Below, one piece after another: positions 19,073-27,529 of a stretch of 64,000 nt of DNA. The position numbers and the translations under genes were made by a program. The notes beneath the pieces are model-generated. The model had not been told where the DNA came from. It worked only from the letters and a program-made list of their open reading frames with translations, and did not search any database. Source of the DNA: a bacterium (GTDB lineage: Bacteria > Krumholzibacteriota > Krumholzibacteriia > G020349025); assembly GCA_031362565.1 (NCBI GenBank), contig JANLSU010000111.1:1-64000 (forward strand), given 5' to 3'. Position 1 is the first letter of the stretch. Each line of letters begins with the position of its first letter.

Positions 19073-20128
19073 TCAGTATATCTCGGGAGACGAGGCGCGG
19101 TCTACGGGGCTTGTGGGCGCCGGTGGTGCCAATCGCTCCGCAATCCCGCTTCGGGCCGGATGCGACGCGCGAAGGCCTTCCGGCCCGGCCGCGGCGACCT
19201 CCGGAAGCGATGCGGCCGGGCGCGCCGGCCGGCGCGACGCCGTGACGAGCAGCACGACGCCGGTCACGATGAGCGCCGCTGCCAGGACGCCACTCGGCGG
19301 AATTCGTTCGCCGGCCACGAGCCAGCCGAGCGCGACGGCAACCAGCGGATTGACGAACGCATAGGTCGTAGCCCGTGTCGGTGTGGTGGCGCTCAACAAG
19401 TACACGTATGCACTGAAGGCGACGATCGCTCCGAACACCACCAGGTAGCCGGTTGCAACGAGCGAGCGCGTCGAAACCGCGTTTGGATCGAAGGCCGCGA
19501 TCTCACCGCGGAGCGCCCCGGCAAGCACCAGCCACGCGCCACCCGTCAGCATCTCCATGGCGGTCGACAGGAATCGCGACCGGGGCAGATCGGCGCGGCG
19601 CGCCAGCAACGAGCCCCAGGCCCAAGAGGCCGAACCCAGCACCAGAACGATGGCGCCGAGCGGATCGACGGCGTGGCCGCCGGTCGCATCGCGAGCGCGC
19701 ATGAGCCAGGCGACGCCGGCGAGCCCCAAGCACAGCCCAATCGCCACGCGACCCGAGGGGCGCGCCGATTCGCCGCGCCACCATTCGAGGAGCGCCATCC
19801 AGAGAGGCACGGTTGCGATGACGAGCGCGGTCAATCCGGAGGGGACGCGTTGTTCGGCCCACACGACGCAGCCATTGCCGCCCAGCAGCAAGAAGGCGCC
19901 GATCGTGGCCGCATTCCGCCACTGGGCGCGCGTCGGGCGTTCGCGCTCCCGCCAGTACCCGATCGCGAAAAGGATCGAGCCGGCGATCAGGAACCGTATC
20001 CCGGCCATGAGAAGGGGCGGGATCGTCTCGATCGCGATGCGGATCGCGAGGTACGTCGATCCCCAGATGAAATACACCGCGAGAAAGGCCATGAGCAGCA
20101 GCGACCGCCGCGGGGCGTGCTCAGTCAT
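19073..20128 (-). CDS. EamA/DMT family transporter (YedA-like)
   Basis: VYFIWGSTYLAIR, RFLIAG, AFSAYVYLL and TYAFVNPLVA. Confidence 0.92.
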   Translation of the reverse strand: MTEHAPRRSLLLMAFLAVYFIWGSTYLAIRIAIETIPPLLMAGIRFLIAGSILFAIGYWRERERPTRAQWRNAATIGAFLLLGGNGCVVWAEQRVPSGLTALVIATVPLWMALLEWWRGESARPSGRVAIGLCLGLAGVAWLMRARDATGGHAVDPLGAIVLVLGSASWAWGSLLARRADLPRSRFLSTAMEMLTGGAWLVLAGALRGEIAAFDPNAVSTRSLVATGYLVVFGAIVAFSAYVYLLSATTPTRATTYAFVNPLVAVALGWLVAGERIPPSGVLAAALIVTGVVLLVTASRRPARPAASLPEVAAAGPEGLRASHPARSGIAERLAPPAPTSPVDRASSPEIY

Positions 20129-20639
20129 CGAGGGCCTCCACGGTGTCGCCGTTCAGGCGCTCGGCAGGTGCGCCGAGCGGCAAGCAGCCGGTCTCTTTAA
20201 TAGTAGTGAGGACGATCGTGGTGCGGGTCGAACGGACCTCCGGAATGGCCCCGAAGCCGTCCCGCAAGAGCCGCCCCAGGGCCTCGGTGTTTTCGACGCG
20301 CACTTTGACGAGATAGCAGTCCTCGCCGGCGATGTGATGGACTTCCTGAACCTGCGGCACCCCGGCCAGCCGCTCGCCGACGGCGCCAGAGCCGACGCGC
20401 TCATCGGCACGCACGAGCACGAACGCGGCAAGTCCTACCCCGAGCGCCACGGGATCCAGGCGCGGTTCGTAGCCGCGGATGACGCCGCGGCTCTCGAGCT
20501 TGCGGAGGCGTTCGAACACGGCGGACGGCGCCATCTCGACCTGGCGCGCGATCTCAGCATTCGAAATCCGCGCGTCCGTCTGGAGAAGGCGGAGGATCTC
20601 GAGGTCGGTTGCGTCGATCGTTCCCTTTTCGATGCTCAT
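20121..20639 (-). CDS. Lrp/AsnC family transcriptional regulator
   Basis: DLEILRLLQTDARISNAEIAR HTH; HHIAGEDCYLVKV RAM domain. Confidence 0.95.
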   Translation of the reverse strand: MSIEKGTIDATDLEILRLLQTDARISNAEIARQVEMAPSAVFERLRKLESRGVIRGYEPRLDPVALGVGLAAFVLVRADERVGSGAVGERLAGVPQVQEVHHIAGEDCYLVKVRVENTEALGRLLRDGFGAIPEVRSTRTTIVLTTIKETGCLPLGAPAERLNGDTVEALDD

Positions 20640-20729: not shown

Positions 20730-21506
20730 TCATCCGTACCGGCCTTCGACATACTCGGCGGTCTTGTGGTTTTTCGGGCTCAGGAACAGATCCGCGGTGT
20801 TGTCGTGTTCGATCAGCTTGCCCAGCAGCATGAAGATGCACTCGTCGCTCGCCCGGCGCGCCTGCGCCATGTTGTGCGTCACGATGACGATCGTGTAGTG
20901 CTCCTTCAGGGTGAACATGAGTTCCTCGATCGCCCGAGTGCCCTCGACGTCGAGTGCGGAACACGGTTCGTCCATGAGGATCACTTCGGGCTTCAAGGGG
21001 ATGAGCCGCGCAATGCACAGCTTCTGTTGCTGCTCGAGCTGCAACTCGGTGGCTCGGTGGCGGAGCCGGTCCTTGAGGTCCTTCCACAACCCCACCTCGG
21101 TGAGCGCTTTCTCGACCGCGTCGTCGAGCACCGAGCGCCGCAGCTCGGAGCGCCCCGAGTGGATCCGCAGGCCGAACACGACGTTCTCGTACACCGACAG
21201 CGGCAGCGGATTGGGGCGTTGAAACACCATGCCGACGGCCTTGCGGAGCTCGATGAGCGAGATCTCCGGCGCATAGATGTTCTGTCCCAGGATGTCGATC
21301 TCGCCCGCGGTCCGGACGTAGCCGTAGCGCTCGTTGACCCGGTTGAAGCACCGTAAGAGCGTCGTCTTGCCGCATCCTGAAGGCCCAATGAGCGACGTGA
21401 TGATCCGTGGACGGATCAGCAGCGACACGTCGAAGAGCGCCTGGAACGTGCCGTACCAGAGGTTGAGACCGCGAGTGGCGATCGAATATGCGCCCGGCTC
21501 GCTCAT
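20730..21506 (-). CDS. pstB: Phosphate ABC transporter ATPase (degenerate signature motif)
   Basis: GPSGCGKT, GMVFQRPNP, DEPCSALD and VTHNM intact; signature reads LQLEQ. Confidence 0.92.
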   Translation of the reverse strand: MSEPGAYSIATRGLNLWYGTFQALFDVSLLIRPRIITSLIGPSGCGKTTLLRCFNRVNERYGYVRTAGEIDILGQNIYAPEISLIELRKAVGMVFQRPNPLPLSVYENVVFGLRIHSGRSELRRSVLDDAVEKALTEVGLWKDLKDRLRHRATELQLEQQQKLCIARLIPLKPEVILMDEPCSALDVEGTRAIEELMFTLKEHYTIVIVTHNMAQARRASDECIFMLLGKLIEHDNTADLFLSPKNHKTAEYVEGRYG

Positions 21507-22267
21507 CCGAAGATCCCCCTCACGTACTCGAACGTGCGGCGCTCGGCAGGCTCGTCCGAGAAGATCACCTCGGTGCGATCGATCTCGACGATCTCACCCT
21601 TCCACAGGAACATGGTGCGATCGGCCAGCCGTCGCGCTTGCTGCACGAGGTTGGTGACGAGAATGATGGTGATTTCCAGGCGGAGCTCCTTCAGAACGTC
21701 CTCGATCCGCATCGTTGTCACGGGGTCGATGGCGATCGAAAACTCGTCGAGGCAGAGGATGTCCGGTTGGTGCGACAAGGCCCGCGCGATGGTCAGGCGC
21801 TGCTGCTGGCCACCCGAGAGCGCGGTGCCGAGGCTCGCCAGCCGGTCCTTGACCTCGTCCCACAGCGCCGACTGCCGCAGGCACCGCTCAACGATGTTGT
21901 CGAGGTCATCCTTGCGCTTCAGCCCCGCCGCACGCGGCGCGAAGGCGACGTTGTCGTAGATCGAAAGCGGCAGGCCGACCGGCAGTGGCGCTACCATGCC
22001 GATCTTGCGGCGCAGGCCAAAGACGTCCTTGACGCGCCGGATATCTTCGCCGTCCAGCCGGATCGTACCCGAAACCTTGGCTTCGGCAACAAAATCGATG
22101 GTGCGGTTGATACAGCGCAGGAGCGAGGTCTTCCCCGACTGCGCCGGGCCGATGATGCCGAGGACTTCGTTGCGCCGGACGTCGAAGCTGATTCCGTGCA
22201 GCACTTCCTTGCCGGAATACGTCAGGCGCAGGTCCTCGACTTCGATGGTCTTCGATCGGTCGTTCAC
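21503..22267 (-). CDS. pstB: Phosphate ABC transporter ATPase (degenerate Q- and H-loops)
   Basis: GPAQSGKT, GMVAPLP, LSGGQQQR, DEFSIAIDP and VTNL. Confidence 0.88.
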   Translation of the reverse strand: MNDRSKTIEVEDLRLTYSGKEVLHGISFDVRRNEVLGIIGPAQSGKTSLLRCINRTIDFVAEAKVSGTIRLDGEDIRRVKDVFGLRRKIGMVAPLPVGLPLSIYDNVAFAPRAAGLKRKDDLDNIVERCLRQSALWDEVKDRLASLGTALSGGQQQRLTIARALSHQPDILCLDEFSIAIDPVTTMRIEDVLKELRLEITIILVTNLVQQARRLADRTMFLWKGEIVEIDRTEVIFSDEPAERRTFEYVRGIFG

Positions 22268-22271
22268 GGGC

Positions 22272-23183
22272 CTACCATTTCTTGCGGTTGCGCAGCCAAA
22301 CCCGCAGGGTGATGGCGGTGGCGTTGACCATCAGCACCGAGCCCAGGAGCACGATCGCAGTGGCGTACGGGATCGACGCTTTGACGTTCGGCACTTGGGT
22401 GGCGACGGTGTAGAGGTGCATCGACAACGCCATGCATTGACCGTCGAGTTTGTACGGGAACAGGTCGCCCCGCTCCACTGCTTTGAAGAAAACTGCCCCC
22501 GTGAACATGATCGGCGCCGTTTCGCCGGCGGCCCGGCTCACCTGCAGGATGACGCCGGTCAGAATGCCGCTGATCGAGTTGGGAAGCACGACCGCCCGGA
22601 TCGTCTGCCAGCGCGTGGCGCCGACGTTCCAGCACGCGGTGCGGAATGCCATCGGCACCGATGACAGGGCCTCGCGCGTGCTGGCGATGATGACGGGCAG
22701 CGTCATGATGGCCAACGTCAGCGCCGCGGAGATGACCGAGTAACCGAAACGCGCCGCGTAAACGAACGCGCCAAGTCCGAAGAGCGCGTGCACGATGCTC
22801 GGCACGCCGGCCAGGTTGATGACCGCCAGGTTGATGATCCGGTTGAACCAGTTGTCCTTGGCGTACTCGTGCAGGTAGATGGCCGCGAGAACGCCGATTG
22901 GCGCGGCGACGGCAAGGGACAGGCCGACGAGGTAGAGCGTGCCTACGAAGGCGGGCCAGATGCCGCCTTCGCGCATGCCTTTTTTCGGTACCTCGACGAG
23001 AAACTCCCAGGAAAGCGACGGCGCGGCTTGGACGAGCAAATAGGCGATGATCGCCACGAGCGGCACGATCATCGACACGGACATCGTGAAGAAGATCCAT
23101 TTGGCGACCGACTCGCTGCGTTCCTTGCGGAAGACGTGTGGGGTCTTGGTGAACAGCGCAGTAACGACTGGAACTTCCGACAT
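22272..23183 (-). CDS. pstA: Phosphate ABC transporter permease
   Basis: AIYLHEY, LAGVPSIV and RAAGETAP. Confidence 0.95.
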   Translation of the reverse strand: MSEVPVVTALFTKTPHVFRKERSESVAKWIFFTMSVSMIVPLVAIIAYLLVQAAPSLSWEFLVEVPKKGMREGGIWPAFVGTLYLVGLSLAVAAPIGVLAAIYLHEYAKDNWFNRIINLAVINLAGVPSIVHALFGLGAFVYAARFGYSVISAALTLAIMTLPVIIASTREALSSVPMAFRTACWNVGATRWQTIRAVVLPNSISGILTGVILQVSRAAGETAPIMFTGAVFFKAVERGDLFPYKLDGQCMALSMHLYTVATQVPNVKASIPYATAIVLLGSVLMVNATAITLRVWLRNRKKW

Positions 23184-23189
23184 GGCCCC

Positions 23190-24155
23190 TCACTTCCTGC
23201 GCACGCCGCGGATCACCAGGTCGGCGGTGAGATTGACGGCGAAGGTGATAATGAACAGCAGCGTGCCGGTCAAGAAGAGCACCCGGTAGTGGTCCGATCC
23301 AGCCGGCGCCTCGCCGAGCTCCGCGGCGATATTCGCGGTCAGCGTCCGGACGGAATCGAGCAGGCTGTGCGGTATCTGCACGGCGTGCCCCGTTGCCATC
23401 AGCACGGCCATGGTCTCGCCGACTGCACGCCCAACGCCCAGCAAGACGGCAGCCAAAAGCCCGTTGCGGGCCGCCGGCACGAGCACGCGATACACCGTCT
23501 GCCACTTGGTGGATCCGAGCGCCAGGGAAGCCTCCCGATAGGAGTCGGGCACGGCTTTGAGGGCGTCCTCGCCGATCGAGACGATGATCGGCACGCTCAT
23601 CAAGGCGAGGATCACGCCGGCGTTCAAGAGGTTCACGCCGACCGGGGCGCCGGTAATCGCGGTGGTCAGCCGGCTCATCACGGTCAGGCCAATGAATCCC
23701 CAGACGACGCTGGGGATCGCGGCCAGCAACTCGATGACGATCTTGAGTGTCTCCTTCAGCCTCGGACCGCAGAATTCCGAGATGAAGATGGCTGCCCCGA
23801 GACCGAACGGAACCGCCAGCGCAATCGCGATCGCCGTCACGCTCAGCGAGCCCACCGTCAGCGCCAAAGTTCCGTAGCGGACGTTCGACACCGAGGTCGG
23901 GTACCACTCGGTGCTGAACAGGAACTCCAGAATGTGGAAATTTTTCGAGAAGAGGACCGGCGCCGCTTCGCGAAAAATGAAGAAGAAGATCGCCAGCACG
24001 AACAGGATGGCGCTGATCCCGGCGAGGCGGATGACCCCTTCGAGCGCCTGTTCGCCGAACACGGCGAGCGCCGAGCGCTGCGGGCGGGCGGCCGCAATCG
24101 CGTCGCTCATCCCGGCGGCGGCCGTTCGCGGCGTCGATCCCTGGGGATGGGCCAT
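23190..24155 (-). CDS. pstC: Phosphate ABC transporter permease
   Basis: ELLAAIPSVVWG, EDALKAVP and GRAVGETMAV. Start uncertain (24155 or 24176). Confidence 0.95.
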   Translation of the reverse strand: MAHPQGSTPRTAAAGMSDAIAAARPQRSALAVFGEQALEGVIRLAGISAILFVLAIFFFIFREAAPVLFSKNFHILEFLFSTEWYPTSVSNVRYGTLALTVGSLSVTAIAIALAVPFGLGAAIFISEFCGPRLKETLKIVIELLAAIPSVVWGFIGLTVMSRLTTAITGAPVGVNLLNAGVILALMSVPIIVSIGEDALKAVPDSYREASLALGSTKWQTVYRVLVPAARNGLLAAVLLGVGRAVGETMAVLMATGHAVQIPHSLLDSVRTLTANIAAELGEAPAGSDHYRVLFLTGTLLFIITFAVNLTADLVIRGVRRK

Positions 24156-24165
24156 CGTCGACTCA

Positions 24166-25074
24166 TCAGTTGCCATGCGGACCGGCGGGCACCGGCACGT
24201 AGCCGCTGTCCTCGAGGATCTTCTGGCCGGCAGGGGACAGCATCCAGTCGATGTAGGTCTTGACCTCGCCCTGCGGCTCGCCAAGCGTGTACACCTGGAG
24301 CGAGCGTGCCAGTGGATAGGTCTTGTTCAAGGTGTTGGCGACCGACGGTTCGAACGCCGTCTCGCCGGCCTTGGAAGCCAGCCTGAGCATCTTGACCGAC
24401 GGCGTCGCGTAGCCCATGCCGCTGTATCCGATCGCGGTTGTCGTGTTGGCGACGAGCTCGACCACTTCCTTGGAGCCGTTCATGTCGCGCGAGCCAAGCT
24501 TGAAGTCCTTCTTGCGGAGCACATGCTCGCGGAAGAACTCGTAGGTACCGGAGCTCGACTGGCGGCTGACACGGACGATCTCATCGTTGGACGTACCGGG
24601 CAACGTCACACCGAGCTGCGACCACTTGGTGAACGTGCCGTCTTCGGCGAAAATCTGGGCGAGCTGCTCCATCGTGATCTCGTTCAACGGGTTGTCCTTG
24701 TGGACGTAGACGGCAAGCGCGTCGTAGCCGACGATGAACTCTTTCGGGTCCTTGCCCGAGTTGCGCCGCGCCTGCTCCATCTCCTCGGGCTTCATGTCGC
24801 GGCTCGAATTGGCGATGTCGATCGTGCCCTTCTCGAGCGCTGCGATCCCCACGCCGGAGCCTCCACCCGAGATCTCGACGTCGACTTTCGGGGCGACCTT
24901 CTTGTACTCCTCGGCCCAAGCCTGGGCGACGTTCACCATGGTGTCCGAGCCCTTCACCTGGATGGACGTCGTGGCGGAACCGGAGTCCTGTTTGTTGCCG
25001 CACGCCCCGAGGACGCAGGCCCCACCGATTGCCAGGCTGGCGCCGAGCAACTTCGCGAACCGTAACGTTCTCAT
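24166..25074 (-). CDS. pstS: Phosphate-binding lipoprotein
   Basis: Lipobox LGAC; KGSDTM, GGGSGVG, ANSSR, SRQSSSGT and YPLARSL. Confidence 0.95.
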   Translation of the reverse strand: MRTLRFAKLLGASLAIGGACVLGACGNKQDSGSATTSIQVKGSDTMVNVAQAWAEEYKKVAPKVDVEISGGGSGVGIAALEKGTIDIANSSRDMKPEEMEQARRNSGKDPKEFIVGYDALAVYVHKDNPLNEITMEQLAQIFAEDGTFTKWSQLGVTLPGTSNDEIVRVSRQSSSGTYEFFREHVLRKKDFKLGSRDMNGSKEVVELVANTTTAIGYSGMGYATPSVKMLRLASKAGETAFEPSVANTLNKTYPLARSLQVYTLGEPQGEVKTYIDWMLSPAGQKILEDSGYVPVPAGPHGN

Positions 25075-25163: not shown

Positions 25164-26264
25164 TCAACGTTTGGCGCGGTCGCGGATCGCCGCGACGAGG
25201 TCGCGAAGCTGGCTCTCGATGAACGTGTAGGTCTTCTCGTACGCCTCACGCACCTCGGCTTCGCTGCCGGTGGCGCGGCTCGGGTCTTCGACCGGCCACT
25301 CGAGGAGGACCGCCTTGCGCGGTCGGCGCGGGAAGGCCCGCTTGGCCTCGGGGGCCAGGAGGACGATGACGTCCTGGTGTTCGAGGTTCTCGACGTCGGT
25401 GACCGCCTTGGGCACGGCCCGCGACACGTCGAGGCCCTTGGACTGCATAAAGGCCGTCGTCGCCGGTTCGACCGGTATCGGGTCGAGCCCAGCGCTCGCA
25501 AACACGAAACCCGGCTCATTGAGCGACGCACCAATGGCCTCGGCCATCACGCTCCGGCAGGAGCTTCGCTCGTCGATGAAGAGCACGTCCATGACGGCCG
25601 CGTGCGGGTGCTTCGCGATCTCGCCGGTACAGAGGTACAGCGTCTCCATGCTGATGTTGCGCGCCTGATCGGAGACCCGCTCGAGGCGCCGGATCACCAT
25701 GATCAACGGGTACACCGCTTCGAAGGGCAGACTCCCGTGACGGAAAGCCTCCATGACATCCGTGGTCAGCTTGTCGCGCAACAAATCCACCGCCTCGTCG
25801 GATTCGATGGTCTTGCTGGCGAGAGCCGAATCCTGATCGACGAACGACTGGATCGCGTCGTCGAGCATGTGTTCTGCGAGGCCGCCGATCTGTTGTAAGC
25901 GGTCGAGCGGCAGCTGGGCGTCGATCTGGCTCAGGCGGAGCGCTTCCCGGGCGATCGCCTCCGCGTAGTCGCCGACCCGCTCCAGTTCCAGGTTGATCTT
26001 GATGCTCGAGTACGCGAAGCGCAGGAGCCGAGCCGCCGGCTGGTGGCGGACGAGAAAGCGCAGACAGAGCTGATCGAGCTGCTTCTCCGCCGCGTCGATA
26101 TAGCTGTCGCGGAGGATGACGGCGAACGCGAGCTGACGGTCCTTCTCAAGTACGGCGCGAATACTGCCGCGGACCGCGGTCTTCGCCATCTCGCCCATTT
26201 CGACGACCTGGCGGCGGATTTCCTCCAGATCCTCCTGGACCGCTGCCTCGAGGTGGCCTGTCAT
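25164..26264 (-). CDS. phoU: PhoU fused to a C-terminal LMW-PTP/ArsC-like domain
   Basis: Two PhoU repeats (ELERVGDYA, RLERVSDQA), then VLFIDERSSCRSVMAEA...SAG...WPVEDP. Confidence 0.9.
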   Translation of the reverse strand: MTGHLEAAVQEDLEEIRRQVVEMGEMAKTAVRGSIRAVLEKDRQLAFAVILRDSYIDAAEKQLDQLCLRFLVRHQPAARLLRFAYSSIKINLELERVGDYAEAIAREALRLSQIDAQLPLDRLQQIGGLAEHMLDDAIQSFVDQDSALASKTIESDEAVDLLRDKLTTDVMEAFRHGSLPFEAVYPLIMVIRRLERVSDQARNISMETLYLCTGEIAKHPHAAVMDVLFIDERSSCRSVMAEAIGASLNEPGFVFASAGLDPIPVEPATTAFMQSKGLDVSRAVPKAVTDVENLEHQDVIVLLAPEAKRAFPRRPRKAVLLEWPVEDPSRATGSEAEVREAYEKTYTFIESQLRDLVAAIRDRAKR

Positions 26265-26638
26265 CCTGTCTCCGTCTCGTTTACTCAGTCCGAACGACAT
26301 CTTCGCACAACCCATAAGAACCGTCTGTGAGGCGACACGTCAAGTGCAGAAGGAGGCGGGCGTGGCCCCACCCCCTTGGCCGCCGGGGAGTTACGCGTTG
26401 ACGAAGCCAAACTCAGGATTCCAGTCGGTACCGACGCCCGATCACCGACGCGACCGTCGGTGCGGGGTCGGTCCAGGCCAACGGTCGGTCCGTTGGGGGG
26501 GCGTGACCCACGTCGTTCGGGCTCGGGGGGCTCGATTCCGCTGTCGGCGCCGGCGGCCGCTCTGGCGTACTATCCGGTTCGAATCGCGCCCTGGCGTTGC
26601 GCTCGAGGCGGCGTCTCATCCCTTCCTCGTGAGGACCC

Positions 26639-27529
26639 ATGCAATTTCTTCGTGCCTTGATGCTCGCGGCGGTGTCCGCGGCGGCGCTCACTGCCGTGCC
26701 CCGCGCCGCCGACGCGGCACCCGCGCGTTCGAAGGCGCGATTGGAGTACTCCTGGGGCGTCGATGGCTCCGTGGTCGGCACCGGCGTCGCCGCGCTCTTG
26801 ATCGCCGCGCAACTGAATACCGATACCCGGGCAGTCCCGCCGGGCGGCTTCAATCGAGATGACGTGCATTGGGGCGTCGACCGGCGTGTCGTACACGAGG
26901 TGGATTCAGTTGCCGACCGGCACAGCAACACGACGCGTGATTTCGCGCTCGCCCTGCCGCTCGTCTTGGGTGCCTTCACGGCCGCGCCCGGCAATCGGCT
27001 GCGCGCCAGCGTCGACCGCATCGCACTGCACGTCGAGGCGGCCGCGATTTCACAGGGCGTCGTCGACATCCTGAAGAAGAGCGTGTCGCGGCCGCGGCCC
27101 TACACATACCTGGCCGCCGCGGACCGCCCGGCGGCTTCGATCTTTGACGTGACCAAGGACCGCGCGTTTCAGTCGATGCCTTCAGGCCACGCGTCGACGG
27201 CCTGGTGTGCGGTCGGCGTGACGCTCGCGGATCCATGGCTCGACGCGCCGGACGCGACGTGGAAACGCCGCGCCGCAGTTGCATTTATCGGGTCGACGAT
27301 TGCGACCGCAACGGGTGTGCTGCGGACCGAAGGAGGGCAGCACTTTCCGACCGACGTGACGGCGGGTAGCGCGATCGGTCTCGCGTCGGGCATCGCCGTG
27401 CCGCTCTTGCATCGCTTCACGGTGGACGGCGCGCCCATTGCGGCGCGCTCGCGGCGCGGCTGGTTCGAAAAGACGGCCGGTCTCGTGGCTGGGATCGGCG
27501 CCGGAGTCCTGTTGGGCGAAAAGCTCTGA
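26639..27529 (+). CDS. PAP2-family phosphatase with signal peptide
   Basis: KKSVSRPRP, PSGH and RTEGGQHFPTDV, the three PAP2 motifs. Confidence 0.9.
   Translation: MQFLRALMLAAVSAAALTAVPRAADAAPARSKARLEYSWGVDGSVVGTGVAALLIAAQLNTDTRAVPPGGFNRDDVHWGVDRRVVHEVDSVADRHSNTTRDFALALPLVLGAFTAAPGNRLRASVDRIALHVEAAAISQGVVDILKKSVSRPRPYTYLAAADRPAASIFDVTKDRAFQSMPSGHASTAWCAVGVTLADPWLDAPDATWKRRAAVAFIGSTIATATGVLRTEGGQHFPTDVTAGSAIGLASGIAVPLLHRFTVDGAPIAARSRRGWFEKTAGLVAGIGAGVLLGEKL

Follow-up and report, generated by a model that had tools for sequence, protein, structure and literature searches.

The locus described here raises the question of how a phosphate importer of the Pst type might be powered by two ATPase subunits, neither of which carries the complete catalytic motif set of an ATP-binding cassette (ABC) protein. 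It is located in a window of 64,000 nucleotides, i.e. the whole stretch of DNA that was analysed (GenBank assembly GCA_031362565.1, contig JANLSU010000111.1, positions 1 to 64,000), from a bacterium of the Krumholzibacteriota. A pst operon on the minus strand of this window encodes, in this order, a PhoU fusion protein, PstS, PstC, PstA and two PstB paralogues, B1 (21503-22267, 254 amino acids, GTG start) and B2 (20730-21506, 258 amino acids), whose genes are terminal and connected by an ATGA overlap shared between the stop of B1 and the start of B2. The position of B1/B2 directly after pstS-pstC-pstA is kept in other loci as far as the contigs extend. Both B1 (274.2 bits) and B2 (318.7 bits) miss the curated whole-protein cut-off of 343.2 bits of TIGR00972, the equivalog model of PstB, which nevertheless remains their best family by a wide margin. 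Based on the data presented below, we consider it quite probable that the operon encodes a complete and selected variant of the Pst importer, in which a B1:B2 heterodimer replaces the PstB homodimer as the motor.

The catalytic set used for comparison consists of the Walker A motif GxxGxGK[ST], the Q-loop Gln, the LSGGQ signature, the Walker B Asp-Glu pair and the switch His, as defined in PMC12096839 (papers are cited here by their PMC accession). This full set is absent from both proteins. B1 shows GPAQSGKT as Walker A, MVAPLPVGLP as Q-loop region, LSGGQQQRL as signature, DEFSIAID as D-loop and VTNL as switch; the Gly at the fourth position of Walker A is missing, as are the Gln of the Q-loop and the switch His. 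In an alignment of 26 sequences it retains the A-loop Tyr (Y17, present in at least 90% of the sequences), the Walker A Lys (K46) and the Walker B Asp and Glu (D174, E175). B2, with GPSGCGKT, MVFQ, LQLEQQQKL, DEPCSALD and VTHN at the corresponding positions, deviates in the signature alone, where SGG is replaced, and is canonical in Walker A, Q-loop, Walker B, D-loop and H-switch. The motifs quoted for the two genes in a preliminary description of this DNA were all recovered from the translations at these coordinates.

In PstSCAB of Escherichia coli, ATP is held by one PstB's Walker A and Walker B and by the other's LSGGQ, and one PstB is located on PstA, the other on PstC (PMC12976172). Mapping of the motifs onto the head-to-tail geometry of E. 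coli PstB assigns the changed P-loop, Q-loop and switch of B1 together with the changed signature of B2 to one degenerate composite site (site 2), and leaves an opposite site (site 1) that is fully consensus, B2 contributing its P-loop, Q-loop, Walker B motif and switch His and B1 its signature. According to this mapping, a consensus ATP site is predicted to arise only in a B1:B2 heterodimer; a homodimer of B1 would be short of the Gln and the His at both of its sites, and a homodimer of B2 would be short of SGG at both. The intact signature of B1 and the intact catalytic motifs of B2 appear to be selected because they would face each other in the heterodimer. We infer the formation of this heterodimer from general knowledge on ABC ATPases and from the co-occurrence and co-inheritance of the two subunits.

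Orthologues of B1 were collected from 21 loci (L009-L029) on contigs of a one-genome-per-species set and from four relatives of the source genome, giving 25 other loci from about ten phyla. A B2 orthologue follows directly downstream in each of them (21/21 and 4/4; one of the 21 copies is cut by a contig end), and neither gene occurs alone in any of the 25. The loci L009-L029 belong to Acidobacteriota, Verrucomicrobiota (Limisphaera), Poribacteria, Binatia, Planctomycetota, Myxococcota, Bdellovibrionota, ‘delta proteobacteria’ and Gammaproteobacteria including Accumulibacter, and their proteins are 55-78% (B1) and 58-80% (B2) identical to those of the source genome; for B1 the range over all 25 other loci is 55-89%. 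Below the B1 orthologues, the next matches are at most 48% identical and represent ordinary PstB. In a joint PstB alignment, the replacements of the Q-loop Gln by Pro and of the switch His by Asn are found in 22/22 B1 rows, with LSGGQQQRL and DEFSIA[IV]D kept throughout, and all 21 complete B2 rows carry the signature L[QSLA][LM]E.QQKL next to otherwise canonical motifs. The Gln, SGGQ and His are all kept in the 67 rows of ordinary PstB in the same alignment. The invariant columns over the 26 B1 sequences comprise K46, P94-P100, L150-L158, D174-D181, T205 and N206, and the 25-sequence alignment of B2 shows GG replaced by LE in 25/25 complete copies, E158 of the signature being invariant and L157 nearly so. 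Mean column identity amounts to 72% in the B1 alignment as well as in that of B2. Moreover, the best 120 matches of B1 in a large protein collection of metagenomic clusters, which include the source protein, are all at least 80% identical and show unchanged motif states in 120/120. Across 25 loci, B1 and B2 are strongly correlated in their pairwise identities (mirror-tree analysis, r = 0.89), a value reached in none of 2000 label permutations, and no stop codon or frameshift was detected in any copy.

The ratios of nonsynonymous to synonymous substitution rates (dN/dS, method NG86), calculated for the source genome and two relatives of its family, are 0.10-0.12 for B1 and 0.16-0.17 for B2, compared with 0.06-0.17 for the canonical PstB of the same three genomes. 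Purifying selection on B1 and B2 is thus as strong as on canonical PstB. The substituted residues themselves are fixed, which points to a new constraint rather than to relaxed selection, and decay is excluded. In the preliminary description the non-random partition of the substitutions had been put forward against simple decay, which is borne out by the low dN/dS, the invariant substitutions and the conserved pairs. Substitutions unique to this genome had been named there as evidence to the contrary; the motif states are instead fixed in the 25 other loci, and the expected co-occurrence of an LQLEQ-type signature with a partner devoid of Gln and His holds for every orthologous pair examined.

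In a tree of 125 rows, B1 forms one clade (26 rows, SH-aLRT 100) and B2 another (25 rows, SH-aLRT 98), both split into the same two subclades; their placement relative to ordinary PstB is without resolution, and the tandem PstBs of Firmicutes are found among the ordinary rows. A profile search of 208 genomes of the source phylum revealed a less derived pair, scoring about 300 bits, in five genomes of one genus, exemplified by the loci L107:6330-7819, L108:5866-7355 and L109:5813-7287. The first nucleotide-binding domain (NBD) of L107-L109 contains GPS[NG]SGKT, an Ala in place of the Q-loop Gln, an intact LSGGQ, DEPCSGLD and an Asn in place of the switch His, and the second carries LSLEQ and is otherwise canonical; plain PhoU is encoded next, and the PstA coupling loop looks ordinary. 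Further intermediates were drawn from a representative library clustered at 50%, in which the B1 family collapses to few clusters. In a second tree, seven intermediates resembling the first NBD and devoid of the Gln and the His join B1 (33 rows, SH-aLRT 99), and five proteins with an xE signature join B2 (30 rows, SH-aLRT 93). Because the intermediates join the B1 and B2 clades, this unrooted tree with its motif-picked intermediates indicates that the asymmetric pair arose once. As judged from the sequences, the loss of the Gln and the His in one subunit and the exchange of GG for xE in the other are common to the whole group, and the core clade is marked by an altered Walker A, the loop PLPVGLP, DEFSIA as D-loop, the ACWN loop of PstA (see below) and the PhoU fusion.

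The remaining parts of the importer are encoded upstream of B1 on the same strand. PstS (24166-25074, minus) is a member of the periplasmic phosphate-binding family (TIGR02136, 240.7 bits, cut-off 206.6; domain PBP_like_2), the permease PstC (23190-24284, minus) matches TIGR02138 over residues 81-360 (282.2 bits, cut-off 196.45), and the permease PstA (22272-23183, minus) matches TIGR00974 (264.5 bits, cut-off 193.45); all three are above their NCBIfam cut-offs. As the listed open reading frame (ORF) of pstC overlaps pstS, its 5' end is probably set too far upstream. Arg220 of PstA and Arg237 of PstC are determinants of phosphate specificity in E. coli (PMC12976172), and the equivalent arginines are kept in PstA (alignment to 9k3x_A) and in PstC (alignment to 9k3s_B). 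Phosphate is most likely the substrate, given the scores of PstS, PstC and PstA above the family cut-offs and the retention of both channel arginines. The EAA loop of PstA, through which the permease is coupled, differs in residues ca. 208-214: it reads FRxACWN[VM]GATRWQT in the core family versus REGSLALGAT in canonical PstA. The sequence ACW[NTS] is present in 24/25 core-family PstA rows (source, L009-L029, L103-L106) and absent from all listed canonical rows, and the intermediate loci L107-L109 have an ordinary EAA loop. The ACWN loop may serve as the site onto which B1 docks with its remodelled Q-loop, a suggestion based on a single correlated change.

The first gene of the operon (25164-26315, minus) encodes a PhoU protein (TIGR02135, 157.7 bits) fused to a domain related to ArsC and low-molecular-weight phosphatases (PF01451). 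In its structural model (mean pLDDT 88.3) the N-terminal part matches PhoU (1t72, TMt 0.94) and the C-terminal part ArsC of Bacillus subtilis (1jl3, TMt 0.87). The P-loop of the source fusion reads D-E-R-S-S-C-R-S, with the nucleophilic Cys replaced by Asp; a CX5R P-loop with a nucleophilic Cys is not present, and the score to TIGR02691 (59.6 bits) is far below the cut-off of 174.3. Among 18 full-length fusions, found in the source locus and in 17/25 other loci, the nucleophile position is occupied by Asp in 17 and by Ser in one, and the Arg is kept in 6/18 (the locus L009 shows only the C-terminal end at its contig start). The fused domain is predicted not to be a conventional reductase or phosphatase and to be catalytically dead. 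A function as an oxyanion sensor was also considered and dropped, as the P-loop Arg is kept in only 6/18 fusions. The PhoU fusion likely regulates the B1/B2 pump. A description of a PhoU-ArsC-like fusion was not found in a literature search. Two Poribacteria loci contain plain PhoU instead of the fusion, positioned after a third PstB-like gene located downstream of B1/B2 (L013:8547-9404 and L014:8477-9277). Nearly every motif of this third gene is altered (GPANCGKS or GPTNSGKS, MVFR, LSIGQQQLL, DEPCGELD and [VA]TNK); its product possesses an ABC_tran domain and forms a long branch among the canonical PstB rows.

The occurrence of the pair is rare and patchy. It was detected in 4/40 relatives of the source genome and in 3/121 genomes sampled from the family to which the Accumulibacter record belongs, and the 208 genomes of the source phylum contain five core-type pairs (including that of the source genome) and five intermediate ones. 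The mixing of taxa within the clades fits a transfer of the whole operon. When 11 pair-bearing genomes were searched with TIGR00972, a PstB above the cut-off was also detected in seven and in none of the other four (G040, G041, G042 and G046), in which the pair is the only Pst-type ATPase found; G041 and G042 match records titled as whole chromosomes. In the source genome the B1/B2 operon is the second Pst system, as an ordinary phoB-phoR-pstS-pstC-pstA-pstB-phoU region, its order read from the ORF translations, lies on contig C2 at ca. 95300-104800. The PstB of this region reaches 393.1 bits to TIGR00972 and shows the consensus in every motif. Its PstC and PstA reading frames are unusually long. 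Upstream of its pstS there is an AT-rich stretch with TGTTCA-like repeats, which might constitute a Pho box; only a GC-rich 11-bp repeat is found upstream of the B1/B2 operon. A further ORF (C29:16000-16725, 231 bits to TIGR00972) was considered as a fourth PstB and dropped, the neighbouring ORF translations resembling an amino-acid-type ABC system.

The data have to be weighed against other explanations for the two altered ATPases. B1 and B2 might act as separate homodimers, for instance as alternative engines of the same permease under different conditions, which would be reminiscent of the tandem pstB genes of Enterococcus faecalis with their non-overlapping functions (PMC12096839). However, the copies of E. 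faecalis both keep all four motifs (PMC12096839), and the tandem proteins of B. subtilis and other Firmicutes (L080, L064 and L082) are canonical in our alignment. Homodimers of B1 or of B2 would repeat the same defect at both sites and leave the invariant LSGGQ of B1 and the catalytic set of B2 without a partner, and the joint occurrence of the two genes in all 25 other loci adds to making this arrangement very improbable. It is hardly conceivable that B1 is a decaying duplicate, i.e. a pseudo-ATPase without a role next to a transporter running on B2. Its PstB model score is indeed the lowest (274 bits) and two residues generally needed for hydrolysis are lost, but its dN/dS is even below that of B2, its sequence is maintained at 55-89% identity over about ten phyla with the substituted residues invariant, and the substitutions are kept in the 120 best metagenomic clusters, with every copy free of stops and frameshifts.

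An explanation of a different kind leaves the pair intact and changes its purpose: the complex might mainly be a sensor or signalling device (‘transceptor’) or an importer of another oxyanion such as arsenate or phosphite, with the degenerate site and the fusion serving signalling. In favour of it, a canonical pstSCAB-phoU is additionally present in seven of the 11 genomes searched, the copy on C2 of the source genome being accompanied by phoBR, the domain attached to PhoU goes back to an arsenate reductase fold, and the Pst/PhoU system of E. coli signals to PhoR (PMC12976172). The four genomes having the pair as their only Pst-like ATPases argue instead for a self-sufficient importer, the scores of PstS, PstC and PstA above the phosphate-family cut-offs and the two retained channel arginines speak for phosphate, and the poorly conserved P-loop of the ArsC-like domain (Arg in 6/18) speaks against an oxyanion-binding sensor pocket. 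We therefore regard this explanation as unlikely. Several points also weigh against the heterodimeric phosphate importer itself. The substrate is assigned by homology and may be arsenate or another oxyanion. The dS values of 0.7-1.1 among the three genomes compared are near the saturation of NG86, and the two trees come from quick IQ-TREE searches with SH-aLRT as the sole measure of support, the second being based on intermediates chosen by motif and having a root that is not established. As B1 has an invariant catalytic Glu (E175) and still contains the Walker A Lys, there may be residual hydrolysis at site 2. Furthermore, the D-loop of one NBD projects into the opposite composite ATP site. 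The proposal that nearly all defects fall into one site holds in this form: the changes of the P-loop, Q-loop Gln and switch His of B1 and of the signature of B2 share one site, and the D-loop of B1, with its exchange of Ser for Ile, belongs to the opposite one. The altered D-loop reaches the consensus site, the defects are thus imperfectly partitioned, and the kinetics of site 1 may differ from those of a canonical site.

For the heterodimeric importer we propose the following scenario. PstS would hand phosphate to the channel formed by PstC and PstA, which would be powered by B1:B2. In site 1, the Walker A motif, Q-loop, Walker B motif and switch His of B2 would be closed by the LSGGQ motif of B1, and ATP hydrolysis there would power the cycle. 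In site 2, the altered P-loop of B1, devoid of the Q-loop Gln and the switch His, would be closed by the LxLEx signature of B2 and show little or no hydrolysis. Site 2 probably still binds ATP, as B1 retains its A-loop Tyr, its Walker A Lys and the Asp-Glu pair of Walker B, and likely serves as a structural or regulatory latch. In the preliminary description, a nucleotide sensor or a platform for PhoU signalling was put forward as a conceivable role of this site. By analogy we infer that site 2 is silent and that about one ATP would be spent per cycle. Degenerate sites of exporters are thought to hold nucleotide and thereby to keep the NBDs in contact, and a single active site can be enough for an importer of type I, as reported for the histidine transporter variant HisP2MQJ (PMC3971661). 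In a more speculative extension of this scenario, the degenerate site and the fusion of PhoU with a dead ArsC domain would jointly act as a brake that is built into the system and absent from canonical Pst. At the silent site, ATP or another nucleotide would remain bound and keep the NBDs pre-engaged, the invariant Q-loop PLPVGLP of B1 would dock onto the ACWN coupling loop of PstA, and the fused regulator would sense the state of the B1 half, gate the uptake and signal the phosphate status. The system would then represent a one-ATP, allosterically gated type I importer of single origin, spread by transfer through many phyla. As a whole, we rate this extension as rather doubtful.

Among structurally characterized systems, canonical PstSCAB of E. 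coli (PDB 9k3x, 9k3y and 9k3s; PMC12976172) consists of the same parts, i.e. PstS, PstC, PstA, an NBD pair and PhoU, and is the best solved match for B1 (E 4e-59), PstA and PstC. In contrast to the E. coli homodimer, the operon described here has two NBD genes, one degenerate site, both NBDs below the PstB cut-off, an extra dead ArsC-like domain on PhoU and an altered EAA loop of PstA. The tandem PstB1/PstB2 proteins of Firmicutes (PstBA/PstBB; E. faecalis, B. subtilis; PMC12096839, PMC11466899) are likewise encoded by two adjacent pstB genes in one operon, and a heterodimer is listed for PstBA/PstBB of B. subtilis (PMC11466899). They differ, however, in keeping Walker A, LSGGQ and the H-loop in both copies (PMC12096839), and they are part of neither the B1 nor the B2 clade. 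A consensus site next to a degenerate one, resulting from complementary changes of two NBDs, is also found in heterodimeric exporters such as TM287/288, TAP and CFTR (PMC7756269, PMC3971661), and degenerate sites are frequent in exporters in general (PMC3971661; PMC7756269). The NBDs of these proteins are fused to exporter-type membrane domains, whereas the present system, a binding-protein-dependent importer of type I, has its NBDs as free subunits. Here the catalytic Glu is retained, and the losses concern the signature SGG, the Q-loop Gln and the switch His. Beyond the ABC fold, there is no sequence kinship between these exporters and B1/B2. Importers with one site judged incompetent from its motifs are likewise known: RbsA and NupO of B. 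subtilis (PMC11466899) have two NBDs in one polypeptide, another type of permease and losses of the Walker A Lys or of Walker B residues, and are not related to Pst.

No description of an asymmetric PstB pair was found in full-text literature searches, the scope of which mostly excluded subscription journals. This agrees with the preliminary description, in which the arrangement was stated to be unknown for a Pst importer. The claim of novelty therefore holds for an asymmetric Pst pair and has to be restricted with respect to importers with one degenerate site, as RbsA and NupO are on record (PMC11466899). The design with a degenerate site is well known in drug exporters and apparently undescribed for phosphate importers. 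What the present analysis adds are the intermediates and the single origin, the genomes in which the pair is the sole Pst ATPase, the selection figures beside those of a canonical paralogue and the PstA loop that is changed together with B1.

The surroundings of the operon contain three further genes. A gene of the PAP2 superfamily (acid phosphatase-like; 26639-27529, plus strand), whose product has a predicted signal peptide-like N-terminus, is oriented divergently ca. 320 bp upstream of the PhoU fusion. After B2, an Lrp/AsnC-type regulator (20121-20639, minus) and an EamA-family transporter (19073-20128, minus) are encoded on the same strand with a mutual overlap of 8 bases. As a tblastn search of the 21 related loci gave no counterpart of either gene, both are probably not part of the pst system.

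Work on degenerate ATP sites has dealt almost exclusively with exporters, and the question whether a binding-protein-dependent importer can operate with one hydrolytic site has been approached mainly by engineered mutants such as HisP2MQJ (PMC3971661). In the system described here, the two sites are distributed over separate small soluble subunits, each of which can be mutated alone, and the canonical Pst of the same genome offers an internal comparison. For type I importers this opens the questions of the ATP:substrate stoichiometry, of the role of a silent site and of the coupling of each NBD to PstA or PstC. At the level of annotation, both genes are now plainly termed ‘phosphate transport system ATP-binding protein’, although they encode the only Pst ATPase in some genomes. 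A natural, widespread and strongly conserved importer appears to run on one hydrolytic site.

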